IMG/VR virus record: IMGVR_UViG_3300037423_000600
Coordinates: 41,102 to 105,101 of that record
DNA from: a virus
DNA length: 64,000 nt
Reading direction: 5' to 3' (one strand)
Position 1 is the stretch's first letter. Every line of letters begins with the position of its first letter. Position numbers and translations under genes: made by a program. This document shows, in pieces, positions 6,611-45,727 of the stretch. Below the pieces are notes generated by a model. The model was not told the DNA's origin and did not search any database. It worked only from the letters and a program-made list of their open reading frames with translations.

Positions 6611-7495
6611 ATGGCTACTACAATGACATCTAACCTGACTCAGACTATCTTGGACGTATATTCCAAGGAGATTGAGTTCCATGCTCAACCCGTACTGCGT
6701 TTTGCTCAATTCGCGGTAACAAAAACGGACCTGAATGGTCAAGCGGGCCTTAAGGTCAAAATGACCATTTACAACAACCTGACAATGGGCGGTAAGCTGA
6801 CTGAGGGAACACCTATCAGCACTCAAGCCCTCAGCACAACTCAAAAGGAAATTGAGGTAACTGAATGGGGTAACGCAATCGCCGTTACTGAACTGTTACT
6901 TCAAGCATCCTTTGACGATGTAATGGCTTCCGGTGCTAAACTGCTGGGTATCGACTACGCTAAGACTCTGGATACGGCCCTCCGCGATGTGGCTCTGACT
7001 TGTACTCAAGTGGTTTACGCAGGTTCCCGCACCGCCCGTAACCAACTGGCGGCAGGCGACCTCATCACAGGTAAGGAAATCAAGGACGGTGTAGAAGTTC
7101 TGTCTACCAACAATGTGGGTAAGTACAACAACGACTACTACGTTACTTTCATCCACCCTCACCACGCTCGCGGTATCCGTGACGACAACGAGTTCCAAAA
7201 CGTAACGGCTTACGGCAAGCAGTACGCTGGTGAAATCGGCCGTATCCACGATGTAATCTTCATCGAGACTACACAAATGCCGATTCTGGATGGCGCGGGT
7301 GCTGGCGGAACTGTTGACGTATACCAAGCTCTGATGTTTGGCGAGAACGCCTACGGTTTGGCAATCGCCCTTCCGGTTGAAATGCGTGACGGCGGCATCG
7401 AGGACTTCGGCCGCGTACACAAGCTGGCGTGGTACTCCATCTTCGGAGTAGACATTCTCCAAGATGTGAACTTGGTTCGTATCGAAACTGCCTAA
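6611..7495 (+). CDS. Major capsid protein (N4 gp56-like)
   Basis: LTEG.PI, EWGNAI.VT, IHP, GEIG.I.DV.FIET, DFGR..KLAWY motifs; codon usage of a highly expressed gene. Confidence 0.92.
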   Translation: MATTMTSNLTQTILDVYSKEIEFHAQPVLRFAQFAVTKTDLNGQAGLKVKMTIYNNLTMGGKLTEGTPISTQALSTTQKEIEVTEWGNAIAVTELLLQASFDDVMASGAKLLGIDYAKTLDTALRDVALTCTQVVYAGSRTARNQLAAGDLITGKEIKDGVEVLSTNNVGKYNNDYYVTFIHPHHARGIRDDNEFQNVTAYGKQYAGEIGRIHDVIFIETTQMPILDGAGAGGTVDVYQALMFGENAYGLAIALPVEMRDGGIEDFGRVHKLAWYSIFGVDILQDVNLVRIETA

Positions 7496-7620: not shown

Positions 7621-7684
7621 TGATGGCTTGTATCCAAACTACCCATTGCCAATGTTTCATCCTTCTAACGGGGAGTGATTAACC

Positions 7685-13588: not shown

Positions 13589-16500
13589 ATGGTCATGTTT
13601 GGTTCAATAATTCACGTAGGCATTAACTTCATTACGCAAAATCTTGGGAAGGCTCTCTCTGGACTGAATCAGTTGGCGGGGGCCTTTCAACAAGCCCACC
13701 AACAGGCACAAATCTTTGCCAATGGTGTGAATACCGTTGTTAACCAAACCAATAACGGAATGAGCCGCTTAAGGAAAGCGTTACAGCATAATTGGGCGAA
13801 TGAATACCGTAGTCTTGTGAATGGCTTGAATATGTCGCACGAGGACGCTTTAGAGTCCATTACCAAGAAGTACGATAACCAATGGCGGGAGATTGCGAAC
13901 AAGTACCAATCTCTCGTTATGGGTTCCGTCGCTCTTTCGATGTCCGGTATTGGCTTGAAAAACGTGGGGCTTGGCCTCGGCGGGTTCCTAAAGGAATCGG
14001 TGGACCAAGCGACTCAATACGAACTGGTGATGAAGCAAATCAGTTGGTACGGTAAAGAAACGGTAAAGACGGACCAAGATAGACTCAAGTTAAACAGGGA
14101 AATCTTCCAACTCGGCCGGGACTTGCCTGTAACAACCTCGGAAGTCGCTACTTCCATGCTTACCGCCATGAAAACCGGGTACTCGGACCTGAACGATGCT
14201 ATCGCGATGGGTAAAGAGGCGTCCAAGATTCAATTTATGTCGATGGGTAAGCTGAAAGGCGAGGACTCTCTCAAATTCGTAAACTTGGCGCGGCAGTTGA
14301 TGGGGGTAGACGCTCAGAAAGCTTCCTCGGTAACGGATGCTATCCTTAAGACGGCGGACGTATCCGCGCTGGACCCGGAAGGACTCTTTAGGGCGATGAT
14401 GTCCTCCCGTTCGGCTAAAGAGAACTTGAAGCTGGATAATGCGTCTTTCTTCGCCCTTCTCGGCGGCATGGGTAACGTGCTGAATGAACGGGGCGCAGGT
14501 GAAGCGTTGAACGTATTCTCCCGAGGCCAGCTTCAAGCATTCGGTTCTAAGCCGGACTCGAAGCGGGGAAAGCTCTGGAATATGCTCGGCATTGACCTTG
14601 AAAAAGAAGGCGACGATATGTTGGCCGTCATTGACAAGGTAGTGAACCGAAGCCACGAACTGTGGGGCGACACTTTCACCCGGCGGGAAAAATTGATGGA
14701 TATCTTCGGTAACGATGCCTTGACTCTTCTCTCCGCCTACGAGGTTAACAAACGGAACTCCGGGATGACGCTTACGGAAATGAGAAATCAGATTCAGGCG
14801 GCTACCGGAACTAAAGATGCTCGGGGTAAATCTTACTCGGATAATGCTGTGGACACGTTCACCAATTCGATGTACGGTTTGCAGGAACAGCTTAAGGGTG
14901 TGCGGGAGCAGTTCTACATCCTCTTCGGCTTGGCTATTGGTCCGGGCTTCAATCTAATTGTGAAGCAACTCACCAATATGCTCTCCGGCATCAATCGGTT
15001 CTTGGAGGACCACCCGAAAATCGCTAGGTATACGGGCTACATTCTCGGTATGGCGGCGGCCTTTACGGTGGCGGCTGGGTCCCTGCTTCTGTTCGCGGGC
15101 TTGATTGTAGGTACGTACTCCTCCATCATGGCCTTTACGACGAACATGATTCGGAATACCCGGGTAGCAGAACTTCTCGGAATGCAGATGTCCACGACCG
15201 GAGACTTAATCAACAATAAATTTATCAATCCGGCGAAGAAGGCTCTTATGTTCATGGGTCGGATGGCTTTAGCATCAGGGCTTCTCTATCTGGCTTGGAG
15301 ATACGACTTCCTTGGCCTTCGGACCTATACGGAATCTTTCACGACTCGTTTCCAAATCGCCATGAAGCGGGTAGACGAAACCATGAACCTGTTCCGTAAC
15401 GGCTCGGTAAAGGACTTCGTTAGTTCTTTCCAAGACCTCGGAAATCGAGGATTCTGGGGCGGTCTTACCCGAGGTATTGTCTCCTTCATGGCCTTAATGG
15501 ACGGCGTGTTCCAAGCGTGGTCGGGGAATACCATTTCCAAGGATATGTATGACAAGCTTAAGGGTGCAGGGCTCCTTAAGGCTCTGGAACTTATTCTCGA
15601 CGTAAAACAGGCCGTAACCGACCTTTGGACAGGCTTTGTAGCCGGGGTATCCGAAGGGGCTAAAATCCTTTGGCCTATTCTTAAGCCTCTGTGGGAATTT
15701 GCGAAGTGGGCTTATGAAAAAGTCACGGGAATCCTCGAACACTTCGGTCTTATGAAGAATGTTCAGTCTGGACTTACGTCCGATTGGCAAAAGATGGGCG
15801 GTTCTATCGGCTTAATCGTAGGCGGTCTTATCGCCTTGAAAATCGGCGTTAAGGCATGGTCGGTGGCTTTAGGAACTCCGCTCAAGGCCATGTGGAATAT
15901 CTACAAGGTCATGCGCCTGCTTATCTCCGGAGGGAAGAACTTCGGGAATTGGTTTAAGGGCGGTGGCCCCGGCCGGATGGCGGGCGGCGGGTCGGCTAGG
16001 GCGGCAAATGGAGCCTTTAACGGTCTGATGCGGATTGGTGGTTGGGTATTTGGAACCAAGCAAACCCGGTTAGCCGCAAATGCCTTAAATAATCTTCGGA
16101 ATAAGAATCGGACGTTTATTCCTCAACCGAACCAACTCAATCTACCCGGCCCAACGAACCGGAATGCGGCACAGAACCGTATGGCGTGGCTTGCCGATAA
16201 ATTCGGCGGCGGGGAAATGATTCAGCGAAATGGCCGTGCTAACTCGGTTCGTAGTCGAGGCTTCCTTGGTAGACTTACCGATACGCTCCTTGGTCGGAGG
16301 CTTATGGTAGAACGTGCGGCGAATGGCACTTTAGGGGTTCGTGGCCGGGATGCTCAAGGCAGAGGCACTTACCGCTTTCTGACTCAGGCGGAGAAGCAAG
16401 AGTTCCAACAACGGGGTGCGCTTCGTCGGGGTGGATTGTTCCGGAATATCGGGAACTTCTGGGAAGGCTGGGTGAAGCATTCGAGTAAACAGGGTATCGT

Positions 16501-17596
16501 TTCTGGAGGGACCCGCACTTTATTACGCGGTGGGGGTGGACTCTTAGGCGGCATCGGGAAACTCGGATTGTCCCTCGGAAAAGGCTTGCTAGGCGGGTTA
16601 GGTAAGGTGTTACTCGGCGGGGTTCCTTTCCTATTTAAGGCGGCCTTTAGGCTTATCCCTATCATCGGCTGGGCTCTCTCGGCTTGGGAGATTATCTCGC
16701 TTATCTGGGAGAATTGGGAGCCGATTAAGAAAGGCGCGGCTAAAGCGTGGAACTGGATTAAGACTGAGGGTGTAACCAAGATGCGGCAGGCGTGGGAATG
16801 GGTCAAAACGGATGGGGTGATGTACCTCGGCCAGTTCTCGGATTGGTTCGTGAATACCGGGCTCCCGGTGGCTACTCAAGGTCTGATTGACGGCTTCTCC
16901 GCCGCGTGGAATTGGGCGAAGGATGACGGTGTGAAGTATCTCGGGGAATTTGCGGATTGGTGGTACTTTACTGCGCTTCCGGCCATCGGCAAGGCCCTTG
17001 TTGATGCGATGTCGAGTGCGTGGACCAAGGTAAAGGAGAATTTGTCCGACTCCACATGGCTCCCGGATTGGATGAAGAAGCTTCTTGGCATCGAGGTTAA
17101 GCCTACGGGCGGAACGGCCTCCACCGGAAACACGCTGGCAAGCGAGGCTACCAAAACCTTCGGGCTGGTTCAAAAAGGAGCTACCTTCTTCAATTACGCG
17201 ACTCATCCGGTCGATGCGGCCATTACTGATATCGGCGGTAACCTCATCAAGAAGGCGGCGCAGAAGGCTTTAGGGTACCCGTCCTCTCACGTAGGTTCTA
17301 AAGTCGAGGATGAAGGTCTGGTTAACGTGGCTCCCGGCGAGGTTATCCTCCGGGATAGAACGGTTCGGGACTTCGAGAACTATGTCGCCTCTTCTAAAGC
17401 GGCCAATCGTTCGGCGGCTCCGGCAGGCGGAGGAGATACATCCATCAACTTCGCTCCGGGTGCGGTCACAATCAATCTGGCGAATGCGTCCCAAGGTGAA
17501 ATCCAGCGGGGTGCGCGGCAGTTGTTCGAGGAGTTCAAGCGTATGGTGGAGACAGAAAATATGCGGAATTACCGTTCCGCTCGGGCGAAAGGGTGA
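13589..17596 (+). CDS. Tape measure protein
   Basis: 1335 aa, helical, hydrophobic central segment and W-repeats; position. Confidence 0.92.
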   Translation: MVMFGSIIHVGINFITQNLGKALSGLNQLAGAFQQAHQQAQIFANGVNTVVNQTNNGMSRLRKALQHNWANEYRSLVNGLNMSHEDALESITKKYDNQWREIANKYQSLVMGSVALSMSGIGLKNVGLGLGGFLKESVDQATQYELVMKQISWYGKETVKTDQDRLKLNREIFQLGRDLPVTTSEVATSMLTAMKTGYSDLNDAIAMGKEASKIQFMSMGKLKGEDSLKFVNLARQLMGVDAQKASSVTDAILKTADVSALDPEGLFRAMMSSRSAKENLKLDNASFFALLGGMGNVLNERGAGEALNVFSRGQLQAFGSKPDSKRGKLWNMLGIDLEKEGDDMLAVIDKVVNRSHELWGDTFTRREKLMDIFGNDALTLLSAYEVNKRNSGMTLTEMRNQIQAATGTKDARGKSYSDNAVDTFTNSMYGLQEQLKGVREQFYILFGLAIGPGFNLIVKQLTNMLSGINRFLEDHPKIARYTGYILGMAAAFTVAAGSLLLFAGLIVGTYSSIMAFTTNMIRNTRVAELLGMQMSTTGDLINNKFINPAKKALMFMGRMALASGLLYLAWRYDFLGLRTYTESFTTRFQIAMKRVDETMNLFRNGSVKDFVSSFQDLGNRGFWGGLTRGIVSFMALMDGVFQAWSGNTISKDMYDKLKGAGLLKALELILDVKQAVTDLWTGFVAGVSEGAKILWPILKPLWEFAKWAYEKVTGILEHFGLMKNVQSGLTSDWQKMGGSIGLIVGGLIALKIGVKAWSVALGTPLKAMWNIYKVMRLLISGGKNFGNWFKGGGPGRMAGGGSARAANGAFNGLMRIGGWVFGTKQTRLAANALNNLRNKNRTFIPQPNQLNLPGPTNRNAAQNRMAWLADKFGGGEMIQRNGRANSVRSRGFLGRLTDTLLGRRLMVERAANGTLGVRGRDAQGRGTYRFLTQAEKQEFQQRGALRRGGLFRNIGNFWEGWVKHSSKQGIVSGGTRTLLRGGGGLLGGIGKLGLSLGKGLLGGLGKVLLGGVPFLFKAAFRLIPIIGWALSAWEIISLIWENWEPIKKGAAKAWNWIKTEGVTKMRQAWEWVKTDGVMYLGQFSDWFVNTGLPVATQGLIDGFSAAWNWAKDDGVKYLGEFADWWYFTALPAIGKALVDAMSSAWTKVKENLSDSTWLPDWMKKLLGIEVKPTGGTASTGNTLASEATKTFGLVQKGATFFNYATHPVDAAITDIGGNLIKKAAQKALGYPSSHVGSKVEDEGLVNVAPGEVILRDRTVRDFENYVASSKAANRSAAPAGGGDTSINFAPGAVTINLANASQGEIQRGARQLFEEFKRMVETENMRNYRSARAKG

Positions 17597-27178: not shown

Positions 27179-30100
27179 ATGCCAAGTAATACGTTATACC
27201 CAACTAGGAATGCGCGGGTATCTAAACCTGAATTTGGCACGTCTGCCTCTATTATGTATACCGCAAATAGTAGCGGTGGACGACTCCGCATGGGTCAATC
27301 TTACGATGATGAGGGCGGTTCTTGGAGTTTTGGCTATGTGGTACTTGATTTTGATTGGTCATCGATTCCCTCAAATGCTGTAATTGATTCCGTAAATCTA
27401 TATCACGTTAGTGACGGGATATTTCTTTCTGGATTGACATTCTTCGCAAGCCGCTATACGGGTACATGGCCTGCCTTAACCAGTAACGTATCACAGGCTT
27501 GTACTTTCGGTAAGGACGAGACATACAAAACAAATTTTACAACAGGCTCATCACAGTCGTATTTCGGTTCCCCCATTCCGGCCGCATTAGCACAACAAAT
27601 TCGCAGTTCTGGCGGCTGGTTGATGATGTACCGGGATGATAAGGCGAATCAGTGGGAATACGAGATTTACCCTTATGACAATGCAAGCTATAAACCATAC
27701 CTACAAGTGGATTGGCATTATCCAAATACAGCACCTAACGCCCCATCAGTATCCATGAGCAATGGGGCATATTGGCAGACAACTTTACAGCCTACGATTA
27801 ACTGGACCTTTAGCGACCCAGACGGTAACCCGCAGGGAGGGTATTCGGTCGAATTAATCAATGGAGCTTACTCCGCCTCTTTATGGAGTTCAGGGGCAAT
27901 AGCGGATGCTAACGCTAGAAGCTATACGCTTCCCGCCGGAGTTATAACAGGGGATGGGACTTTTTGGCTCAGGATGAGGGTTTACGACTCCAATGGAGCG
28001 TGGAACCAATCAAACGGAAATTCCCCCGACCCTGCCTTTGGAAACGTCTCATTCGGCGTGGACAGGACTGCACCAACGACAAGCAATTATAATGTTGGGG
28101 TAACGCCTGCGAATATCGCCTCTGGAGGGACAAAGAATGTTTCCATAGACATTGGGGATGGACTGTCCGGAGCCTATTTATCAGATGCCTATTATTGTAA
28201 ACCGGATGGCACATGGGTTCAGTGTTTATCCCTTGCGACAAGTTCAGGGGCAACACGGACAATTCCCGTTCCAATAACTACTGAGGGAACTTATCTTGTT
28301 GATTTCTATGTGCGGGATAATGCGGGTAACAATGCGGCGAGTTATCCAGTTCGATTATCTTTCATTGTAGACCGAACAGCCCCGGCCATGAACAGTGTAA
28401 CCGGACAAATCAAGACGAACTCTTCCGCCACCCAACGGTTTACGGTTAACACTTCAGATGCAAACGGCATCCAGCGTGTCGATGCGTATATCCTAAACTT
28501 CGCCGGAACTGCGTGGAGTGGTCCTTTCGCCGCTACGAATGCGGGAAGTGGCAACTGGTACTATGACTTCAACCCGGCGTATGAGGCAGGGAATGGTACC
28601 CATACAGTCCGCTTCTGGTCTTACGACCCGGCGGGGAATGGAAACTTCATCGACTCCTCCTTGGTATACGATACTACGGCACCTTCGGCACCGACCATTA
28701 CGCCAAGCCGGGCGGCCGGGTCTTGGGGAGCGACGGATGTCACCTTCACTTTAGGCGGCAGTACGGATTCCCTGACGGGAGTAAACCGCTACGAGTATAA
28801 CCTAAACGGTGGAGCATGGACGACTTACACGGGGACGGTTACTCTCTCTACGACCGGAGCAACTACCGTAAATGCCCGAGCCGTGGATAATGTCGGTAAT
28901 GTCAGCGGTACAACCTCCGCCACATTTTATATCGACAAGGTGGCCCCTACCGCCCCAACGATTAACCGGAGTAATACAAATTGGAGTAATGTGAATGTTA
29001 CCTTTACCATTACAAATGGTACGGATGCAAACTCCGGCGTAGCCCGAAGCGAATACAACCTAAACGGCGGGGCATGGACGACCTATACCGGGACAGTAAC
29101 GGTTTCGGCGGCGGGGCAGACCACAGTTAACGCGAGAACCGTCGATAATGCAGGTAACGTGAGCAGTACAACAACTACAACTATTTATATTGATAAGGTT
29201 GCACCTACAGCTACAAACCAAACTTTTACGGTTAATACGAACTCGACTTCCGCCCGCCTTTGGATTTATGGTGTTGCGGATGACTATTCGGGTGTAAATC
29301 GCATTGAAGTTTGGCGCACCCCTCCCGGTGGTGCGGAGGCGTATTTAGGCAACATGACTAAAAACGGAGCTACGAATGATTACTACATTGACGTAACCCT
29401 CTCAACTCAAGGTACCTACGCGTATCGGTTGGTTCCATTTGATAACGCGGGCAACTACATTAATGCAGGTACGGCTAATGTAACCTACGACACCACGGCC
29501 CCGACAATCGGAAGTGTAGATGCTTATGGGTATACCTCGGCCACCACAGGGACCCGCCGGGTCTTTGCAAACAATGTAGCGGATAGCGGCTCAGGCATCA
29601 ATACCGTTAATGCCTCTTATATCCGGCCGGGGGATGGAGGGAGGACCACACTCACCGCTGTCCAATCAGGTTCTAACTGGTATGTGGACGTTCCCCTGAG
29701 CGCGGTTCAAGGGGAGTGGAACGTTCAATTCCAAGCGGTAGACCGGGCGGGGAATACCTCAAGTGTGTCGACGGCTTACTTCTTTGTCGATAACGTAGCA
29801 CCTGCTGATGGTAACGAACAATATAGCATTACGGAGAGCTCGGTTACCGTTACTTGGACAGGCTTTAGTGACACCGCACCTTCTTCTGGATATTCAAGGA
29901 CTGAGTTTTACTTCCAAAAGGCGGACGGTACTCCTATTGATATCGATAGTAACGGCTCTACCGAGTCCCTTCTCACTTTTACGGATAACCGTACAAGTTA
30001 TACCGTGAACAACTTGGTTCCCGGCACTCAGTACCGTTGCACAGTGGTTCTTACGGATAAATCCGGGAACTCAAACGCATGGAGTTACGATACGTTCTAT

Positions 30101-31972: not shown

Positions 31973-32068
31973 TGTAGATATAGATGCTCAAGCATACCCG
32001 GCCGTGATATTGAATTTATCTTGAACTATATTTGTGAGGAGGATTCGTTATGTGAGGGAGTGATTGTC

Positions 32069-32497
32069 GTGCAGAAAACGGACTCTATTTATCAAATCAT
32101 CTTAGGTTCAGTATGGGCGTTATTTATTTATCTTGTTGGTGGAATCGACAAATTATTTATCGCCTGCACCATCTTGATTGTTCTGGACTACGTAACCGGG
32201 TTTCTCTCGGCATGGTACAGGAAAGAACTCATCAGCCGTACGGCATGGTTTGGCCTTTTGCGGAAAGGTCTGATGTTGGTTCCTATGATTGTGGCTAATC
32301 AGGTGGACCTTATCTCTGGCATAGAGAACAGCCATTATGCCCGGAACGCCATGATGTTCTTTATTATCGCCACGGAAGGGACGAGCATATTTGAACACCT
32401 TGGAAAATTGGGGCTCAAGTATCCAAAATTCATTATTGAGTCTCTTACAAAACTCCGAGGCGATACGGGCCAGCGGCGGCGGAAAACTGACAGATAG
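32069..32497 (+). CDS. Holin (phage holin 4 / TcdE-like)
   Basis: LDYVTG, S...GL.RK, E..SI.E.L..LG..P motifs. Confidence 0.88.
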   Translation: MQKTDSIYQIILGSVWALFIYLVGGIDKLFIACTILIVLDYVTGFLSAWYRKELISRTAWFGLLRKGLMLVPMIVANQVDLISGIENSHYARNAMMFFIIATEGTSIFEHLGKLGLKYPKFIIESLTKLRGDTGQRRRKTDR

Positions 32498-32509
32498 GAG
32501 GGCTCTTTG

Positions 32510-33367
32510 ATGCCTACAGCAATAAGACTCGGGATTGATTGCGGGACCGCACTTACGGCAATTACAGCACGAGCGTTTAAATCCCAAGGCTCTCAATTCG
32601 TTGGGAGGTATGTGAAGCCGAACTCTTGGAAGTCCTTAAAAGCGTCTGAGGTTCCGAATATTTTAGCGGAGGGGTTATGGATTCTTCCGGTATATGAACG
32701 GACGGCAGACCGGACTAAAGGCGGGGCGGGCGCGGGAAAGGTAGACGGTAAAGAGGCATTTGATTACTGTGTCGCTTTAGGTATCCCTCAAGGCATAGCC
32801 GTTTACTTTGCGGTGGATTATGACGCGCCTACCTCGGAGTTTAATAACATCGAGGCTTATCTCCGGGCGGCGGCCGCCCAAATGACCGGGTACAAAATTG
32901 GAGTGTACGGCTCTTACTCGGTAGTTGAGGAAATGGCGGCCCGGGGCGCGGCGGAGTTCTTTTGGCAGACTCTCGCGTGGAGTAAAGGTAAAATCTCGGA
33001 ACATGCGAATGTCTACCAAAAGCAAATCGACGTTACAGTAAATGGCATCGGCGTGGATTGGAACGACCAATTCAGCTATGCCGGGATGTGGGGCGAACCT
33101 ATTCCCGCTCCAACTATCATCGTAGAAGAAAGGGATGACGACAATATGCCGATTCAAGCACCGGATTGGGTATGGGGACAAATGTACAATATCATTGGGG
33201 ACGCGTATAACAAGGACCTTGTGGGTTGGGAGTGGTGTCAGAAGGTCCTCGACCGTACCATGACCTCTTGGGAGTATGCTCACATTTTGGCGGTGATTGA
33301 GTCCAAGAAAGCCGGACTTAACGTGGATGCAAAGAATGACGCTTGGAAAAAACCCGAGGAAAGGTAG
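32510..33367 (+). CDS. Endolysin, DUF1906/GH25-like
   Basis: GIDC, FVGRY, IYFAVDYD-like, GVYGSY; C-terminal wall-binding-like segment. Confidence 0.85.
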   Translation: MPTAIRLGIDCGTALTAITARAFKSQGSQFVGRYVKPNSWKSLKASEVPNILAEGLWILPVYERTADRTKGGAGAGKVDGKEAFDYCVALGIPQGIAVYFAVDYDAPTSEFNNIEAYLRAAAAQMTGYKIGVYGSYSVVEEMAARGAAEFFWQTLAWSKGKISEHANVYQKQIDVTVNGIGVDWNDQFSYAGMWGEPIPAPTIIVEERDDDNMPIQAPDWVWGQMYNIIGDAYNKDLVGWEWCQKVLDRTMTSWEYAHILAVIESKKAGLNVDAKNDAWKKPEER

Positions 33368-33918: not shown

Positions 33919-34395
33919 ATGCCGGACTTCGACTTTAGGATTGTAGACCGATTGCAGGAGTATGACAAGGACATCAAGTTTGAACAATTACGTTATCATC
34001 GTAAACGGGTAATGGTGTCTAAAGAGTTTACTTTCGACTCCGCCCACCATTTACACGCTTATGAAGGGAAGTGTAAAAACCTCCACGGTCACACCTATAA
34101 GGTGGTCTTTGGGATATCCGCTACCACGGATTCTATCGGTTTGGCGGTGGATTTTGGGGATATTAAGGAACTATGGAAATCCCAAATCGAACCCTATTTG
34201 GACCATCGTTACCTGAACGAAACCCTTCCGCCGATGAATACCACAGCGGAAAACATGGTCTACTGGATTTTCGAGCAGATGGAAAACGCCCTTAAGACCT
34301 CCAATATCAACGGTACTCGTCAACCCCGTGTGGAGTTCGTTCGGTTGTTTGAAACCCCAACATCTTACGCCGAATTTCGGCGGGAATGGTTATAA
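33919..34395 (+). CDS. queD: 6-carboxy-5,6,7,8-tetrahydropterin synthase
   Basis: FDSAHHL, C.NLHGHTY, DFG.IK, LDHRYLN, TAEN, ETPTSYAE. Confidence 0.95.
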   Translation: MPDFDFRIVDRLQEYDKDIKFEQLRYHRKRVMVSKEFTFDSAHHLHAYEGKCKNLHGHTYKVVFGISATTDSIGLAVDFGDIKELWKSQIEPYLDHRYLNETLPPMNTTAENMVYWIFEQMENALKTSNINGTRQPRVEFVRLFETPTSYAEFRREWL

Positions 34396-36000: not shown

Positions 36001-36114
36001 GTTTATACGGTATATATACCGTATAAACTGGCACCTACTTAAGATTCTAAAGGAGCGGGTACTTAAGAAACTTAAGGAACAAAATACATATATTAAATAA
36101 AATAAAAACATTGT
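36001..36114 (+). repeat. 28-bp perfect palindrome + two repeats + AT-rich tract (copy 2)
   Basis: GTTTATACGGTATATATACCGTATAAAC followed by sequence closely similar to 7542-7620. Confidence 0.8.
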
Positions 36115-36131
36115 GGAAGGACGTGCTAAAG

Positions 36132-36545
36132 GTGAATTATCGACAGCATATGACGTTCGGCTTGGCTTTAGGGGCGGGGATTCAGTACATAGGACATATC
36201 GGTTCTACGAACCTTTTCTCTATACCGTCATACTATGCAGGAGTGGCTTTAGGTTCTCTACTCCCGGATATCGACCATCCTCAATCGTTTCTCGGCCGCC
36301 GGATACCCATAATCCCGCAACTCATCTACGACGTATGGGGCCACAGGTCAATTACTCATTCCTTACTGGCCTTAACCACGCTAGGTATCGCTACGGCTTC
36401 GACACTACACTTTTCTCCTTACCTTCTCCTCGGGAATTTTATCGGGTATCTCTCACATTTACTCGGGGATATGCTGACCAAATCGGGCATCCCTTTATTT
36501 TGGCCGATAGAAAAGAAAAGGTACCGAATCGTCGCCATATTCTAA
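36132..36545 (+). CDS. Membrane metal-dependent hydrolase (YdjM-like)
   Basis: LLPDIDHP, HRSITHSL, SHLLGD.LT..G. Confidence 0.9.
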   Translation: MNYRQHMTFGLALGAGIQYIGHIGSTNLFSIPSYYAGVALGSLLPDIDHPQSFLGRRIPIIPQLIYDVWGHRSITHSLLALTTLGIATASTLHFSPYLLLGNFIGYLSHLLGDMLTKSGIPLFWPIEKKRYRIVAIF

Positions 36546-36728
36546 TTCCGGGAATACTGTAACCTAAGAGGCATACCATACCCAACCGCAGTTCGGCTGT
36601 TCCTCCGGGCCGATGCCGGAGTAGGTTGGGTATGCTTCTTCTATTTTGTAGGAAAGGAGGCATATGCGGGAATGGATGGACATAGTAATGGTAATAATGG
36701 TAGGACAATGAACGGGAGGGAAGATAAG

Positions 36729-36908
36729 ATGCAATTCCATATCTTTTCGGAGTACCAAAGTATTCATGATGAGGTATATACGTTTGACTCCAAGTATTAT
36801 GAGGAATTAAGGAGAGAAGCGGCTAAACTTGGGGCCAAATCCCGCCCGTCCGGAAACAATTTCCAAGGGCTCCGGTTGGTCGTTGACAATACGAAGAAAA
36901 AGCAGTAA
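36729..36908 (+). CDS. Small hypothetical protein
   Basis: RBS GGGAGG; ends in LRLVVDN. Confidence 0.55.
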   Translation: MQFHIFSEYQSIHDEVYTFDSKYYEELRREAAKLGAKSRPSGNNFQGLRLVVDNTKKKQ

Positions 36909-36917
36909 TCTTTACTT

Positions 36918-37061
36918 GTGCGAGAAACCACCCAAGGCGGCAAACTTTAACAGGTGAGTTACTTCCGTTTATCGATGTGCCGAGAGTGCGCTAACACTAC
37001 GAAGCAGATAGGACCTACTGGCTATGCCCTAGGGCGTACGGCGGTAGGTTCTTTTCTTTTT
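36918..37061 (+). ncRNA. Tandem sRNA cassette 1
   Basis: TTGACA-17-TAATCT at 36883-36911; terminator at 37011-37061. Confidence 0.6.
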
Positions 37062-37085
37062 CCGCCGGGTATGGTATTATTTACA

Positions 37086-37209
37086 TTGTCTCGTCATTGT
37101 TGGCGAGGAGAAATGAGATAGTATTGGCGTACTTCTAATTTTTCCTTGTCACGTTCCCGGAAAGCCTTTGACTGTATTGCCTAAACAGTCAAGGGGTTTT
37201 TGCTTTTTT
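37086..37209 (+). ncRNA. Tandem sRNA cassette 2
   Basis: TG-N-TATTAT at 37072-37080; TTGGCG-loop hairpin; terminator at 37161-37209. Confidence 0.6.
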
Positions 37210-37234
37210 CCGGCGGCTATGGTAAGATGGTTTT

Positions 37235-37418
37235 ACCTTAGTTCGTTGGCCGCCGGGATTGAAGAGTTCCGGCCGTATCCATCGAATACGTGTAGCTGGT
37301 GGGCTCTACGTGGTTATAAAGGTCAAAGGTTGTGCGCCTTGTTAAAACCATTGCCAATGGAACAGCCTTTATAAAGAAAACCCCTTTTCGCGTTCCACGC
37401 GGGGAGGGGTTTTTCTTT
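37235..37418 (+). ncRNA. Tandem sRNA cassette 3
   Basis: TTGCTT-17-TAAGAT; multibranch stem; terminator at 37373-37418. Confidence 0.6.
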
Positions 37419-37524
37419 GCCTTTCGAGGGAGTAACCCCATAGTGTTATTCTTCGCCTGCCGGGTTATACTATAGATGTCGGGTTAGGAGCCCGGCAAAT
37501 CCTTTAGCGAAGGGCGGGAGACGG

Positions 37525-37644
37525 ATGAACTTGGATAACGTAAATATGGTGGACTATATGAGAGCCGAGCGGGAAGCAATTAAGCAGTTGGATAAATTCC
37601 ACAGAGTCTTAGCTGAACTTTACCGTAGGGGTTGCCTCAAATGA
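37525..37644 (+). CDS. 39-aa hypothetical protein
   Basis: RBS GGGAG; ATGA overlap with next gene. Confidence 0.5.
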   Translation: MNLDNVNMVDYMRAEREAIKQLDKFHRVLAELYRRGCLK

Positions 37645-37868
37645 CCATCATCGACGTTATCGTGCAGGGCACCGTCTGGACCTTTGTTATTCTTGCCGGG
37701 TTATTCTCTAAACCCATTTGCTACGCTATCCGGGTTACCGCCCGCCATGAGCGGAAGAAAAAGAAAGCCCAAATCCGGGCGGCTTTAGCGGAACAACGGA
37801 AGGCGGAAAAAGCCGAACTCAAGGCACAAAAACAATACCAAAAACAACTACGAAAAGGGGCGTGTTAA
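37641..37868 (+). CDS. Membrane-anchored basic coiled-coil protein
   Basis: N-terminal TM segment, K/R-rich tail. Confidence 0.65.
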   Translation: MTIIDVIVQGTVWTFVILAGLFSKPICYAIRVTARHERKKKKAQIRAALAEQRKAEKAELKAQKQYQKQLRKGAC

Positions 37869-37870
37869 TT

Positions 37871-38065
37871 ATGGCGAAAAACCAAAAAGCAGTTCCTACT
37901 CAACAGGTGAATCAGGTATTGGACCAAATGAAATATGAAATTGCCAGTGAACTTGGCATCCAAACAGGGGCAGACCAAACGGCCCGTAATAACGGTCGTG
38001 TCGGCGGGCAGATGACAAAAAGGCTGATTCAAATTGCTGAATCTACTATCGCTGGCGGCCGATAA
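37871..38065 (+). CDS. Alpha/beta-type small acid-soluble spore protein (SASP)
   Basis: LDQMKYEIASELG, G.VGGQMTKRLIQIAE. Confidence 0.95.
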   Translation: MAKNQKAVPTQQVNQVLDQMKYEIASELGIQTGADQTARNNGRVGGQMTKRLIQIAESTIAGGR

Positions 38066-38154
38066 TGGATGGAGAAAGTCTTTTGATGACAGGTATTTCC
38101 GTAATGTATGGGTTGTTTTTACTCGGAGCTATTTTCTTTATAGGTCGAACTTAA
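38065..38154 (+). CDS. 29-aa membrane peptide
   Basis: TAATG coupling to SASP; hydrophobic. Confidence 0.5.
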   Translation: MDGESLLMTGISVMYGLFLLGAIFFIGRT

Positions 38155-38271
38155 ATGGTTAAATCCTTTCAAGATTATAGAAAAGAAAAATACCGTGGAT
38201 TCTGGCAATCATTTTGGGTCATTGTACTCCTTATTCTTTCCTTCCTCTTCTTTGCTTCTGAGGCCCCGTAA
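38155..38271 (+). CDS. 38-aa membrane peptide
   Basis: Abuts previous ORF; TM segment; terminator at 38260-38290. Confidence 0.5.
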   Translation: MVKSFQDYRKEKYRGFWQSFWVIVLLILSFLFFASEAP

Positions 38272-38309
38272 AAGGGGTCTTTTTCTTTTTAAAAATTTTC
38301 GGCGGGGAC

Positions 38310-38341
38310 ACGCACCAAAATAGGCTCCGGCCCATACCTTA
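38310..38341 (+). promoter_or_regulatory. SigK-type promoter (copy 1)
   Basis: ACGCAC-N17-CATACCTTA. Confidence 0.6.
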
Positions 38342-38371
38342 TTTACATAACGTTAACGGGGAGTGAAATCC

Positions 38372-38497
38372 ATGACGATTGGTGACGCTTTGCTGTGGAT
38401 AGCCAGCGCGTATATTTCGTGGAAATTCATCAAGGGAACGTGCAACATCGTTTCCACTATGGCGGAAGTCGGGCTCGAAAAGCTACGGCGGCTGTAA
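38372..38497 (+). CDS. 41-aa membrane peptide
   Basis: RBS GGGGAGTG. Confidence 0.55.
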   Translation: MTIGDALLWIASAYISWKFIKGTCNIVSTMAEVGLEKLRRL

Positions 38498-38519
38498 CGG
38501 GCGGGAGGAGGAAAGAACG

Positions 38520-38714
38520 ATGACGGAAACCCAAAAAGCAACACTGGAGAAAAGCTTAGAGACAGCTACCAAGGCGGTGAAGAAAATCCAAGATGAACTC
38601 AAGGCTTTAGAAATTCCCTTAACTCAACTCACGGTAAGAAAGACCGCTTTATGCATTGACCTCTTGGAGGCGGAAGTTCTGGAACTCAAAGAAGCATTTA
38701 ACGCACGGCGATAA
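38520..38714 (+). CDS. Coiled-coil hypothetical protein
   Basis: RBS GGAGGAGG. Confidence 0.7.
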   Translation: MTETQKATLEKSLETATKAVKKIQDELKALEIPLTQLTVRKTALCIDLLEAEVLELKEAFNARR

Positions 38715-38732
38715 CAATGGGAGCATACCCTA
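38701..38732 (+). promoter_or_regulatory. SigK-type promoter (copy 2)
   Basis: ACGCAC-N17-CATACCCTA. Confidence 0.6.
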
Positions 38733-38804
38733 TTATCATCAGCGGCCCCAAGCCGCACTTAGTCACCGGGATGATAATAGGGTATGGGACAGGGAGGTAG
38801 GAAG

Positions 38805-39020
38805 ATGATAACTGCATCAATAGGAACGGCTTTTTATATCGGCGGCGTGGGTATCATTGGGGCCTTAATTAGTTTGGTGGTTAAGGCTATGGGAAATCCG
38901 GCATTAGCTACTCTCATCGACACGGTGGCTTTGATTGCTATTTTATTCGCGGCCGGGTCCGTATTTATGGAGTTCTTTGATTATCTTCGACATATCGGTT
39001 ACGAGTATAATGTACTCTGA
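38805..39020 (+). CDS. SpoIIIAC/AD-like two-helix membrane protein
   Basis: AFYIGGVGIIGALISLVVKAMG...ATLI resembles recalled SpoIIIAC pattern IF.IAGVGI..A.L..IL..MG...A. Confidence 0.6.
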   Translation: MITASIGTAFYIGGVGIIGALISLVVKAMGNPALATLIDTVALIAILFAAGSVFMEFFDYLRHIGYEYNVL

Positions 39021-39052
39021 TTTTTGTTCCCCACAATAGGGAGGGTTGTATC

Positions 39053-40453
39053 ATGGTTCTAGGGGCTACCGCTATCGCGGCGGTTGCAGGCAAGTTGATT
39101 CTAAAAGGTGCGCTCGATATGGCGGGTATGTCGTTGATGGCTGGAGCGGGTGCAGGTATATGGAAGATGTCCCGCCGCCCGCCGGAGGTTGTTCAAGTGT
39201 TGATGCATGGTGGAGTGTATCCGGTGGGATTGAAGAAGTCCCCGGTGACGTTCTATGAGCGGGATACGGTGACGGATACAGATGGAAAGCAACACGAAAT
39301 CTTTACTTACAAGATGGAGATTCCTTTAGGGAAATCGCTGGCGGATTTTAAGACCCGGCTCCCGGCCCTTGAGGATAAGTTTAATTGCGAAGTCAAGATG
39401 TGGCTGGAGAACGGGTTGGCCTGCATGAAGATGATTATGAAACCCCTCCCGGACAGATTGGAGTTTAATGAATCGATGTACGAAGCCCTCCGGAAACACG
39501 AGTGCGGGGTTATCCTTGGGGACAGCCGGAACGGGCTCCGTATCATCGACCTTGCCAAACCTTCCACCTTTAGTATGCTTATCGGCGGGGTGGCGGGCGG
39601 AGGAAAAAGTAATCTCCTGAATGTAATCATATGTGGGACGGCGTGTGCTTATGCGCCGTGGGATGTTCAATTTTACCTTGTGGATATGAAGGATGGTGTT
39701 GAATTTGCTCCTTACGAAAATCTACCCCATGTTCAGTCAATCATTGACGACCGAGGGAATCGTAAACGTATTATCGACAACGTGGACGATTGTTCAAGTA
39801 TGCTCCGAAGTCTTGCTGATGCCATCCGCATCCGAAACCAGCTTTTTAAGAGTGCCGGAGTACGAAACATTAGCGAGTATCGGGGCCTTGGCTATGAACT
39901 CCCGCATATCATTGTCATCGCAGACGAATTTGCAGACTTCGGAACCCTTGACACCCAGAAACGAAATAAGCTGTTTACCGAGTGGGGATTCCTTACACGT
40001 AAAGGCCGGAGCGCGGGGATACACTGTATCATTTGTACCCAAATCGCTGATGCCGATTCGGTCCCTCGCCAGCTAAAGGGGAACCTGCCTGTAAAGGTCG
40101 GCTTTAGGATGACCAAGCGGGAGAACTCCGAAACCATTTTTGATTCGGATGTCGCTATCCACATCCCGCCGATTCCCGGCCGGGCCGTTCTTAAAATTGG
40201 CGACTACGAAAATATTCAAGTACCTCTACTGGAAACCCAGACGATTGAGGAAAAGATTATTCCTCAACTGGAACCCTATAACGAGATTATGGAAGAGAGG
40301 GAGGCGGAATTACTTGCGGAAGAATCGGACGATGAACAACTACCGGAGGATGCCTTTATCGAATCTCAACAGGTGGAGCCCGAGCCGGAACCGGAACCCG
40401 CACCCAAAAAACGGGGCCGGAGCAAAGCCAACCCGGATATAATCGCTACTTAA
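39053..40453 (+). CDS. FtsK/SpoIIIE-family ATPase
   Basis: GVAGGGKS, VDMK.GVEF, IADEFAD, GRSAGIH....TQ, IPGRA; N-terminal hydrophobic anchor. Confidence 0.93.
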   Translation: MVLGATAIAAVAGKLILKGALDMAGMSLMAGAGAGIWKMSRRPPEVVQVLMHGGVYPVGLKKSPVTFYERDTVTDTDGKQHEIFTYKMEIPLGKSLADFKTRLPALEDKFNCEVKMWLENGLACMKMIMKPLPDRLEFNESMYEALRKHECGVILGDSRNGLRIIDLAKPSTFSMLIGGVAGGGKSNLLNVIICGTACAYAPWDVQFYLVDMKDGVEFAPYENLPHVQSIIDDRGNRKRIIDNVDDCSSMLRSLADAIRIRNQLFKSAGVRNISEYRGLGYELPHIIVIADEFADFGTLDTQKRNKLFTEWGFLTRKGRSAGIHCIICTQIADADSVPRQLKGNLPVKVGFRMTKRENSETIFDSDVAIHIPPIPGRAVLKIGDYENIQVPLLETQTIEEKIIPQLEPYNEIMEEREAELLAEESDDEQLPEDAFIESQQVEPEPEPEPAPKKRGRSKANPDIIAT

Positions 40454-40485: not shown

Positions 40486-40601
40486 AAAACAAAAACCCCG
40501 CCGGATGGCGGGGCCAATTAAGAATCTCTGGGGAGAATCAAGAAGTTCATTGGGCTTCAAAGAAAATATTGGAACTCATGTTAAAAGTATATACAAGAGT
40601 T
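40486..40601 (-). ncRNA. Candidate minus-strand sRNA
   Basis: Minus-strand TGGTATAATACTTATA promoter (40601-40616); pyrimidine-rich body; CCCCGCC/GGCGGGG terminator with T tract. Confidence 0.55.
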
Positions 40602-41113: not shown

Positions 41114-41151
41114 ATCGACCCTTGTCCCGGGTTATACTACTTATATCAGGT
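41114..41151 (+). promoter_or_regulatory. Conserved phage promoter
   Basis: ATCG-N15-TATACT-ACTTATATCAGGT. Confidence 0.8.
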
Positions 41152-41680: not shown

Positions 41681-41863
41681 GTGAAAGATTGGTACAAGAA
41701 GAGTGGAGCAACTGTGGTATATCAAACCCCGGACGGTACGCTAAAGGCTCAAGTTTGTAAAGACGATGGCGTAGCTTGGGAGTTATATGACCAATTCCAA
41801 AAGGCAGGCTGTAACCCAGTCATTTTCCTAAATGAAAATGGATTACACGAAAGGAGAAAATAA
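41681..41863 (+). CDS. Hypothetical protein
   Basis: RBS GGAGGAGG. Confidence 0.65.
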   Translation: MKDWYKKSGATVVYQTPDGTLKAQVCKDDGVAWELYDQFQKAGCNPVIFLNENGLHERRK

Positions 41864-41864
41864 G

Positions 41865-43700
41865 ATGATGCAAACAGTTGAAGTAAAAAGTAACATTGGC
41901 GGCAGGCTTAAGAAAATCCGCGAAGGCGTGGTGTTCAATTCGGTTACATCTGTCATTGGGGAACTCGGGCAGAACGCCCAACGCGCTCTCAATGCGGCGG
42001 TGGCGGCCGGGAAGAATCCGGATGAAGCTTCTATCTTCCTTGAGTTTTCTCCCGATAAGAAAACCTTTATGGTATCGGATAACGGAATTGGTTGCTCCAA
42101 TCCTCAGGACATTTTGGAACTCGACGTGTCGGGTTTTGGGGTGGGTTTCGGGGAGGGCTTTAGTTCGGTATTCCTTATCGCAGACCGGATTATCATTAAC
42201 TCGAACGATTGGTATATGGATATTGACGTTATCAAGATGATGGAAAATGCGGACTACGAGGTTCAGGTTCACAAGTCGGATGTGGTTAAAGATGGAGGGT
42301 TTACTGTTATCCTTTCCGGTCAGAAGATTGAAGAACATCACGATGAATTACTTCGATTTACGGAAGAAATGGCTTCCCTGCTTCCCTACCCGACTCTTCT
42401 GAACGGTGCTTATGTGAAGAAGAAAGACCTCTCCGACCTTGGCCGCCGGGTCCCGTATAAAATGGATGTCGATAACGAGTTCTTCTCCGGGACTTTAGGA
42501 GCCAACAATAGCTGGGACGATGTTCAGGTGTACTATGAGAACCGCTATGTGTGTGCAATCTGGAAATCTGGCCTGTGCGGAAACATCATGCTAAAGCCTG
42601 GCGCTGTCAATCTCAAAGCCCCGGACCGCCGGGAAATCATTTACGATGCCAAGCGCACCGCTCTTATGGAGAAGCTTCAGGAATGCGGTAAAGTCTTATA
42701 CCAAGGCTTCCTCGAACATGATTCCGATAAGGCCCTCACCGAGTACGCCGAGAAGGTCGAAGCTTTCCTCTCGGTGGATGAGTATATTCCCTTTCTTGAA
42801 ATGGATGTAGCCGGACTCGACTTTGCTAAAATGATGGAGGAGAAACATAAGCCGCATACCGACGAGCAACTTCTCGAAGCGGCCGGACTAGATACTCCGC
42901 ATCAGGAACACTTCGGAGGCAGTTCTCGCACAGTTGGCGGCTCCAAACTCAAGATTGACGGCGGGGATGCCGCAGAAATTGGAACGGCGGAGCCTCGTTT
43001 TGAGAAATCTCGTAAGGAATCCGAGAAGCTTACTAAGGCCAAGACCAAGAAACGCCAGAAGAACTACGGCAAGTTCATTGAGAAGCTGAACAAGATGAAG
43101 GCTCAATTTAAAGTAGTCTGGGCGACCCTGAATGAAATTGATACTTACGAGCCTCAACTCAAAGAACTCAAGGGCTACGGGTTTACGGTACTTACCGCGA
43201 AGAGTAAACTGTACGAATCGGCCTTTAGGCATTTGGATATCCTGCACTTCCAAGAAGTCGAATCCAATGTACAAATTAAGTATTCGTTTAACAACATCGG
43301 CGCGGCGGACGGTAAAGAATCTCGCGTCCTGTGGCTTCTTGAGCGTATTGAAGAAATCCTCAAGACCCCCAACCTTTTTCGGATATGTGATATCGAATGC
43401 CAAGTAGAACATTTCCGGAATAACCAGCTTGTGGCTACGGAAACCCGCGTCTGTCGCTATCGTTATGACAAAGCTTCCGACCGGATTTACATTGACCGCA
43501 AGCATCTGGAACTCCCGTCCTATCGAGTGGAGAAATGGAATGACGGCAAGATTAACTTGAATGACCTCCGGCTGATGCTTAAGAATTTGGAATTTATCGC
43601 GCAGGAGGTCACGAAGTTCAAGAAGAAATCGCATGAAGTCGCTGAGGGCTTCTGGGAATCTAAAGATGCCGTCCTCCGGGAATTGGCGGAGTTATTCTGA
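41865..43700 (+). CDS. GHKL (HATPase_c) ATPase domain protein
   Basis: ELGQNA, VSDNGIG, GFGEGFSS, G.TV motifs. Confidence 0.85.
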   Translation: MMQTVEVKSNIGGRLKKIREGVVFNSVTSVIGELGQNAQRALNAAVAAGKNPDEASIFLEFSPDKKTFMVSDNGIGCSNPQDILELDVSGFGVGFGEGFSSVFLIADRIIINSNDWYMDIDVIKMMENADYEVQVHKSDVVKDGGFTVILSGQKIEEHHDELLRFTEEMASLLPYPTLLNGAYVKKKDLSDLGRRVPYKMDVDNEFFSGTLGANNSWDDVQVYYENRYVCAIWKSGLCGNIMLKPGAVNLKAPDRREIIYDAKRTALMEKLQECGKVLYQGFLEHDSDKALTEYAEKVEAFLSVDEYIPFLEMDVAGLDFAKMMEEKHKPHTDEQLLEAAGLDTPHQEHFGGSSRTVGGSKLKIDGGDAAEIGTAEPRFEKSRKESEKLTKAKTKKRQKNYGKFIEKLNKMKAQFKVVWATLNEIDTYEPQLKELKGYGFTVLTAKSKLYESAFRHLDILHFQEVESNVQIKYSFNNIGAADGKESRVLWLLERIEEILKTPNLFRICDIECQVEHFRNNQLVATETRVCRYRYDKASDRIYIDRKHLELPSYRVEKWNDGKINLNDLRLMLKNLEFIAQEVTKFKKKSHEVAEGFWESKDAVLRELAELF

Positions 43701-45316: not shown

Positions 45317-45727
45317 ATGAGTTATCAAAGTATGCTTACTCTTATCGACAAAAAAGAAACGGAATTACTGGCTCAACTGCATACCGTTCGGGAAATGCGT
45401 AAGCTTGTTCTTCAAGAAAGTACGTCCGATTTGAAAGAACACTTTTTTCAGTTGTACCTTACTAATATCGAGGCTTATTGTAATTGGACCAAGGTTAAAG
45501 ACCCTATTTCCGGCGAGGAATCGGCTCCCGATGAAACCTTGATGCGCGGTATCGAAACCTTGGCGGCTATTTCCGATGTCGCAAAGAAAGCTTTCCGGGA
45601 GGAAATTCTTATCCGGATTAGTTCCTACACCCGGAAGCAAAAACAATTTACCTCCGAAAGTCACGAACGGTTGAGTGAGGCTTTAGATAAATACGTCAAA
45701 AAGCACATAGAAAATACCTTACCTTAA
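45317..45727 (+). CDS. Stand-alone PrkA (YeaG-family) C-terminal fragment
   Basis: YL.NIEAYCN..KVKDPISGEE..PDE.LMR.IE....S..AKKAFREEILIRIS.Y.RK...F...SHERL.EA matches the recalled Bacillus PrkA C-terminus. Confidence 0.85.
   Translation: MSYQSMLTLIDKKETELLAQLHTVREMRKLVLQESTSDLKEHFFQLYLTNIEAYCNWTKVKDPISGEESAPDETLMRGIETLAAISDVAKKAFREEILIRISSYTRKQKQFTSESHERLSEALDKYVKKHIENTLP

Follow-up and report, generated by a model that had tools for sequence, protein, structure and literature searches.

A likely sporulation-linked gene island pairs a SpoIIIAC-like membrane protein with an FtsK-family ATPase in a 105-kb phage

Gene content and conservation of the island

The DNA analysed here is a stretch of 64,000 nucleotides (the window) comprising bases 41102-105101 of the 105,101-bp IMG/VR virus record IMGVR_UViG_3300037423_000600. 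Our subject is a compact gene island at 37525-40453 of the window that encodes an alpha/beta-type spore protein of the small acid-soluble kind (SASP), a divergent phage form of the two-helix SpoIIIAC/AD family and a membrane-anchored P-loop ATPase of the FtsK/SpoIIIE family. The island falls into operon 1 (37525-38271), in which the SASP and small membrane proteins follow a promoter of the ordinary phage type, and a second part (38314-40453) that lies behind two sigmaK-type motifs. Two relatives were used for comparison: L003, an IMG/VR contig from a phage ~60% identical to this one, and L023, a short AT-rich metagenome contig. The features of the island, including open reading frames (ORFs) and transmembrane (TM) segments, are as follows, in window coordinates.

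37376..37414, + strand: strong intrinsic terminator, an 18-pair stem followed by a T run, closing the upstream non-coding region; the hairpin is kept in L003
37463..37472, + strand: -10 region GGTTATACTA of the operon 1 promoter, of the phage's general promoter class
37525..37644, + strand: 39-aa helical protein, first gene of operon 1
37641..37868, + strand: 75-aa membrane protein, one N-terminal TM helix (hydropathy) and a Lys/Arg/Glu-rich tail
37871..38065, + strand: alpha/beta-type SASP, 64 aa (PF00269)
38065..38154, + strand: 29-aa single-TM ORF (hydropathy), uncertain gene; its start overlaps the SASP stop
38155..38271, + strand: 38-aa single-TM ORF (hydropathy), uncertain gene; no counterpart found in L003
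38260..38281, + strand: terminator-like hairpin ending operon 1, with a GC-rich stem of 8 pairs and a T run after it
38314..38341, + strand: sigmaK-type promoter motif P1, AC-N17-CATACCTTA, ahead of the 44-aa ORF and the coiled-coil gene
38363..38497, + strand: 44-aa ORF, doubtful gene; below the hydrophobic-helix threshold, no L003 counterpart
38520..38714, + strand: 64-aa coiled-coil protein
38705..38732, + strand: sigmaK-type promoter motif P2, AC-N17-CATACCCTA, directly before the SpoIIIAC-like gene
38724..38786, + strand: conserved hairpin with a 17-bp perfect stem, its 5' arm beginning with the P2 -10 box
38805..39020, + strand: 71-aa two-TM protein of the SpoIIIAC/AD family, in a divergent phage form (PF06686)
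39053..40453, + strand: membrane-anchored FtsK/SpoIIIE-family P-loop ATPase, 466 aa, with a single motor domain and an acidic/Pro-rich tail
40494..40515, strand undirected: GC-rich hairpin 3' of the ATPase gene, likely the terminator ending the island

L003 preserves the gene order and reading frames of the island, with protein identities of 41-73%, so that the grouping goes beyond chance, and the genes flanking the island are also common to both phages. Identity between the two copies is 56% for the 39-aa protein (an ORF at the same place), 59% for the 75-aa membrane protein, 73% for the SASP, 49% for the coiled-coil protein, 41% for the SpoIIIAC-like protein and 59% for the ATPase. The coiled-coil ORF, the SpoIIIAC-like gene and the ATPase also stand in a row in L023, where the ATPase is just 34% identical. 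In the Logan assemblies, P0115, another SpoIIIAC-like protein, and P0003, an ATPase with 59% identity, were each found on a single contig of 88,384 bp; going by this equal length, the pair probably lies together there as well. The three smallest ORFs (38065-38154, 38155-38271 and 38363-38497) gained no comparative support.

An earlier note on this DNA, made from the letters and their ORFs, had listed four short TM proteins. A clear helix was found in three of them (37641-37868, 38065-38154 and 38155-38271), the 44-aa ORF being the exception, and of these small membrane peptides the 75-aa protein is the one kept in L003. Start positions were also corrected, to 37641 for the 75-aa protein, 37871 for the SASP and 38805 for the SpoIIIAC-like protein. 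The Pfam and synteny checks that the note had suggested gave all three named proteins above curated cut-offs and the conserved order just described.

A divergent SpoIIIAC/AD-family protein precedes the ATPase

The SpoIIIAC-like protein scored 35.2 bits on PF06686 (cut-off 24), and two of its orthologues passed the same cut-off independently (28.0 and 29.8 bits). Searching 1.84 billion proteins with a profile built on the phage copies brought back nothing beyond the query, a single orthologue and three genuine SpoIIIAC/AD proteins, and alignment to genuine SpoIIIAC with hhalign gave 96% probability over 60 residues at 30% identity. The equivalog model of NCBIfam (TIGR02848) returned 25.9 bits, under its cut-off of 56.65; because the Pfam model is passed and the equivalog missed, the protein is regarded as a divergent family member and not as an orthologue. 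Hydropathy indicates two TM helices, and translation likely starts at 38805, which is preceded by a ribosome-binding site (GGAGG) and is where P0115 starts as well. The two-helix SpoIIIAC/AD-like protein predicted earlier is thereby borne out, both by the Pfam score and by the reverse search.

The protein shares its Pfam family, length class and two-helix hairpin with SpoIIIAC and SpoIIIAD of the SpoIIIA-SpoIIQ channel. Unlike them, it is encoded outside any spoIIIA operon, with a coiled-coil protein and an FtsK-type ATPase as neighbours in place of the secretion-type ATPase SpoIIIAA, and no Spore_III_AB, Spore_III_AE or SpoIIIAH was found in the phage genome. Its gene follows a sigmaK-type motif, in contrast to the host spoIIIA operon, which is sigmaE-dependent in B. 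subtilis. SpoIIIAD belongs to the membrane complex around the forespore (PMC2703783). Searches for further phage copies gave little: tblastn found nothing in phage records, no PHROG family matched, pattern scans of IMG/VR with the phage and canonical forms of SpoIIIAC returned L003 only or nothing, and a word-indexed protein search returned the query itself.

The 64-aa coiled-coil protein encoded just upstream matched no Pfam or PHROG family, and all scores in a protein atlas search were below 0.9. In L023, a comparable helical ORF lies ahead of the SpoIIIAC-like gene.

The ATPase has a single motor domain and lacks the accessory domains of FtsK and SpoIIIE

The ATPase scored 90.2 bits on PF01580 (FtsK_SpoIIIE; cut-off 24, E 1.7e-25) and best fits the phage family phrog_1358 (E 3e-65), which covers residues 79-430, the motor and the preceding subdomain. 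The Walker A motif GGGKS is invariant among its relatives. The membrane anchor proposed in the earlier note is present as one Gly/Ala-rich hydrophobic stretch of ~40 residues, not as the 4-TM domain of SpoIIIE. The phage protein thus has the Pfam ATPase domain and Walker motifs in common with SpoIIIE and FtsK, and differs from them in that none of FtsK_4TM (PF13491), FtsK_alpha (PF17854) and FtsK_gamma (PF09397) was detected, although its close cellular matches carry all three; a gamma domain is encoded by a separate gene ~50 kb away. On the NCBIfam FtsK model NF007615 it reached 58.5 bits against a cut-off of 1566.

Among solved structures, the matches were EssC (4nh0), EccC5 and the conjugative 'DNA translocase coupling protein' 6o1w, the last over residues 84-384, a span of 300 residues that includes the subdomain ahead of the P-loop; FtsK aligned only over residues 283-366. 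The NCBIfam models for EssC and EccC of type VII secretion systems (T7SS) gave 101.5 bits (cut-off 509) and 91.3 bits (cut-off 778). These T7SS and coupling proteins are the best structural and NCBIfam matches, yet the phage protein has one ATPase domain where EssC/EccC have three, and all scores fall far under the equivalog cut-offs. The neighbours scanned included no relaxase, VirB4 or WXG100-type gene. The cargo of the putative motor may be DNA or protein.

The closest cultured example is SP15_161 of phage SP-15 (phrog_1358, 32% identity), which also combines a single motor with an N-terminal anchor and has no gamma domain. In SP-15 and in Listeria phage LIS04 an 87-aa two-TM gene directly precedes the FtsK-like gene. 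The idea that the SP-15 protein is a hidden relative of SpoIIIAC was dropped, as it has no similarity to SpoIIIAC or to the phage protein described here; a two-TM gene ahead of the motor as a general phage trait was also rejected, as the arrangement turned up in no group but this family and Thornevirus. Small temperate phages of Bacillus and Geobacillus (L020, L021 and L022) have an FtsK-like gene after the endolysin region, followed by a replication-relaxation protein, a plasmid-like pairing unlike the one found here. Complex prediction with the SpoIIIAC-like protein and ATPase residues 1-80 scored 0.00, which gives no verdict and speaks neither for nor against binding. PADLOC returned only domain-level matches to the FtsK-like end of SspH.

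A canonical SASP in an operon of the ordinary phage type

The SASP scored 67.7 bits on PF00269 (curated cut-off 22, E 8.9e-19) and also matched phrog_10367. Its alignment with SspC (PDB 2z3x) covers both conserved blocks, including YEIASELG and NGRVGGQMTKRL, and it carries the germination-protease site E-I-A-S-E together with the G-x-V-G-G-x-x-T-K-R-L block, in agreement with the clear alpha/beta SASP with an intact EIASE site described earlier. The L003 orthologue scores 67.8 bits on PF00269 and reads EVAQE at the germination-protease site. SASP genes of 52 Bacillus phage records, SPO1 among them, are 48-58% identical, and a SASP gene is likewise present in phage G; within the phage collection such genes are confined to phages of spore-forming Bacillus. 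The known phage SASPs (SPO1 gp34.25, SPbeta-like sspC and the Tsamsavirus SASP) are of the same family and size and are likewise carried by phages of spore formers; sspC is located in SPbeta of B. subtilis 168. Here the gene shares an operon with small membrane proteins and adjoins the SpoIIIAC-like/ATPase pair, while the SASP of phage Chewbecca is a lone gene on the opposite strand.

All ten bases of the operon 1 -10 box (GGTTATACTA) are kept in L003 while its flanks have diverged, and the GGTTATA(A/C)TA box also precedes at least six other operons of the phage. A promoter-like element, GGTTATAATACTTATATCAGGT, followed by a ribosome-binding site and with TATCG ~30 nt upstream, occurs at 41130, 44098, 47418, 51886, 56241 and 61560 of the window, and looser copies are present in the genome before the window; standing ahead of many operons, it probably represents the main promoter class of the phage. 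In the promoter region of the SASP operon, GTATA 15 nt upstream is present in L003 alone.

Neither the 39-aa protein nor the 75-aa membrane protein matched a Pfam or PHROG family, and for the latter all protein atlas scores were below 0.9; the L003 copy of the 75-aa protein begins MTIID. At the place of the 29-aa ORF, L003 has a hydrophobic frame with no canonical start codon. Also in L003 (6823-7134), a second frame is open for 103 codons over the whole SASP gene, with a hydrophobic tail at the position of the 29-aa ORF.

SigmaK-type motifs and a conserved hairpin in the second part of the island

The motif examined upstream of genes was of the sigmaK type, with AC at -35, a spacer of 16 or 17 nucleotides and CATAnnnTA at -10. 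Mapped sigmaK promoters of C. difficile have the same layout; the sigmaE and sigmaK promoters of that species have the -10 box in common and differ at -35 (ATA for sigmaE, AC for sigmaK). The strict motif has only two + strand matches in the 105-kb genome, a count close to chance, and both are P1 and P2 inside the island. L003 has the motif at both equivalent places, at 7178 (near-identical to P1) and at 7625, before the SpoIIIAC-like orthologue. Three matches occur in L003 against 0.4 expected, the third lying before its YdjM gene, and none of 300 simulations reached three. In L023 the motif is found at 197, again before the SpoIIIAC-like gene, where 0.003 are expected per 120 nt.

Taken alone, the -10 box CATAnnnTA has only 11 copies on the + strand of the 105-kb genome, where mononucleotide shuffles give 24. 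Five of these genomic copies lie within 2.6 kb (36087-38724), one of them just before the YdjM-type gene.

P2 overlaps the conserved hairpin at 38724..38786. The window and L003 disagree at four positions of this hairpin, each of them matched by a compensating change in the opposite arm; in L023 an analogous stem spans 15 bp. Since an RNA starting at P2 would lack the 5' arm, any role of the hairpin would lie in longer transcripts or in the DNA itself. A similar CATACC...GGTATG hairpin, also with compensatory changes, lies before the ribosome-binding site of a 78-aa ORF upstream of the island (window 36577-36634, L003 5829-5885). Rfam contains no family for these hairpins.

Further sporulation homologues and the genomic setting

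Four more homologues of sporulation proteins are encoded by the phage, namely SpoVS (E 4e-21), a stand-alone FtsK gamma domain (E 3e-24), YyaC/DUF1256 (E 7e-43) and a C-terminal fragment of PrkA (E 1e-24), at 16295-16594, 27984-28487 and 28991-29593 of the genome, before the window, and at 45317-45727 of the window. Counting the three island genes, the phage thus has seven sporulation-family homologues.

The record carries 127-bp direct terminal repeats and is rated as a complete 105-kb phage, nearly all of whose genes are on the + strand. The following features lie upstream of the island.

32021-32497: holin, with tail genes before it
32507-33367: endolysin
36111-36545: YdjM-type membrane hydrolase, beyond genes without assignment
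36672-36908: conserved 78-aa ORF, preceded by a ribosome-binding site and a hairpin

A QueD/PTPS gene (33919-34395) directly follows the lysis genes. Between the upstream genes and the island, ~600 bp hold no credible ORF; within them, the ~470 bp at 36908-37376, from the 78-aa ORF towards the island, likewise have none and end at the strong terminator. Downstream, a 622-aa protein (41832-43700) has a weak GHKL/HSP90-like ATPase signature and is 64% identical in L003; it matched no PHROG or PADLOC family.

A genome search for tyrosine integrase, sigma-70 region 2, Spo0A and GPR, in which serine recombinases were not searched, found none of them, and the absence of a tyrosine integrase fits a phage that persists only via spore trapping. 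The 50,697 phage records contain no similar DNA, a search for prophage relatives in 185,579 genomes, one for each prokaryote species, came back empty, and single-sequence patterns turned up no close relatives of the locus. Composition and the absence of any DNA match argue that the host is not Bacillus. The YyaC homologue matched 298 of 401 sampled genomes (~46-60% identity; the phylum holding a Lachnoclostridium metagenome-assembled genome), with no single host prominent.

A model for the island in host sporulation

The combined comparisons indicate that the island is likely linked to sporulation, and suggest that it acts on or travels in host spores. The earlier note had proposed that the phage either moves its genome into the spore and protects it there or interferes with sporulation. 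The link to sporulation behind both ideas has been strengthened by the promoter motifs, the synteny and the four additional homologues. The SpoIIIE-like pump across the polar septum that formed part of the proposal is not supported, as the ATPase is without the domains that define SpoIIIE and FtsK, it scores at least as well against EssC/EccC and a conjugative coupling protein, sigmaK timing is late and the SASP promoter is ordinary.

The best reading, to which we assign a probability of roughly 0.45, is that the island serves the entrapment and protection of the phage genome in spores. This explanation takes the host to be an endospore-forming member of the Bacillota and the phage to be virulent, as it appears to be. 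Once an infected cell sporulates, the RNA polymerase of the mother cell would switch on the SpoIIIAC-like/ATPase pair; the SpoIIIAC-like protein would place the motor in the mother-cell membrane facing the forespore; and the SASP would coat DNA, so that the phage genome would be silent and protected in the spore (entrapment, or a 'virospore'). We infer the sigma factor used, the cell compartment, the cargo of the motor and the effect on spores from sequence.

Several observations weigh against entrapment. The P2 -10 box is part of a conserved hairpin and may be a structural element and not a promoter. SigmaK comes into play late, once pumping of the chromosome into the forespore is over, and a candidate promoter of this type implies mother-cell expression when septal DNA pumping is done. 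The ATPase is not a SpoIIIE orthologue, judging by its domains and scores, and resembles the protein-exporting EssC/EccC at least as well as FtsK. The SASP operon bears the ordinary -10 box of the phage, and neither consensus patterns, which gave no match near the island, nor the C. difficile promoter tables pointed to a clear sigmaF- or sigmaG-type promoter for it. Finally, FtsK-like genes on their own are known from Bacillus phages, as the earlier note had stated; they occur in 373 phage records, and these include phages of non-sporulating hosts (Mycobacterium, Listeria and Staphylococcus).

The last point also favours reuse of the genes outside sporulation, an explanation we consider plausible, if less probable than entrapment. 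The ATPase and its two-helix partner would then make up a phage membrane translocase of general use, carrying DNA or protein and serving perhaps superinfection exclusion, genome segregation or T7SS-like export, and the SASP would coat DNA generally while the phage grows vegetatively, either to shut off the host or to guard against nucleases. The high scores of the ATPase against EssC/EccC and a conjugative coupling protein, the unrelated 87-aa two-TM genes ahead of the motors of SP-15 and LIS04, and the standard type of the SASP operon promoter are all in keeping with such a role. It sits less well with sigmaK-type motifs that in this genome are found only in the island and are kept across diverged relatives, with the restriction of phage SASP genes to phages of spore-forming Bacillus, and with seven sporulation-family homologues, which are hard to explain without a sporulation link.

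Sabotage of sporulation appears somewhat less probable again. The SpoIIIAC-like protein would be a decoy that poisons the SpoIIIA-SpoIIQ channel of the host while the SASP stops DNA transactions, so that the spore fails and the mother cell stays a phage factory. An AC/AD-like piece on its own, with no other SpoIIIA part in the phage, is what a decoy would look like; loss of SpoIIIA collapses forespores (PMC2703783), a reduced spore yield is a known effect of phage sigma factors (PMC10294663), and the sigmaK-type motifs point to the mother cell. A decoy would need no ATPase, however, yet the pair is kept down to 34% ATPase identity, and at the sigmaK stage it would arrive after the early work of the channel; moreover, the SASP is canonical and its GPR-type site intact, as would suit a protein made for spores. 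That the island consists of passenger genes without selected function, or of mis-called small ORFs, is very improbable. The three small ORFs without comparative support would suit this view, but across three or four lineages, at 34-73% identity, the core genes have retained open frames and the signatures of their families, and compensatory changes maintain the hairpin.

Returning to entrapment in spores, a more specific and distinctly improbable version is that the SpoIIIAC/AD mimic docks the FtsK-type motor onto the SpoIIIA-SpoIIQ 'feeding tube' between the mother cell and the engulfed forespore, or lets it stand in for part of that tube. The motor would drive phage DNA or protein through the channel late in sporulation, with the stand-alone gamma-domain protein as DNA reader and the SASP packing the genome inside. 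If this docking were true, the island would represent a dedicated viral machine for spore entry.

The outcome proposed here, a non-integrated phage genome carried in the spore, is the same as in the spore entrapment of virulent phages such as phi29 and SPO1. The known cases depend on Spo0A, Spo0J and SpoIIIE of the host together with binding sites in the phage DNA, and we know of no description of phage-encoded membrane machinery for spore entry. The virulent phage SPO1 forms virospores (PMC12991052). A survey of phage sporulation genes lists spoIIIE and has no SASP or spoIIIA gene (PMC10294663), and the SpoIIIAC family is absent from PHROGs, from the 50,697 phage records and from that published list. 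The combination of genes, which had stood out from the start, therefore holds its interest: the SpoIIIAC-like gene, its pairing with the motor and the promoter motifs appear new, whereas SASP and FtsK-like genes alone were already known. If the sporulation link holds, the island would give access to the question of how the forespore is reached or altered by phage genomes, and may help to understand the role of SpoIIIAC/AD in the channel; if it fails, the locus would show sporulation proteins recruited for other viral uses.

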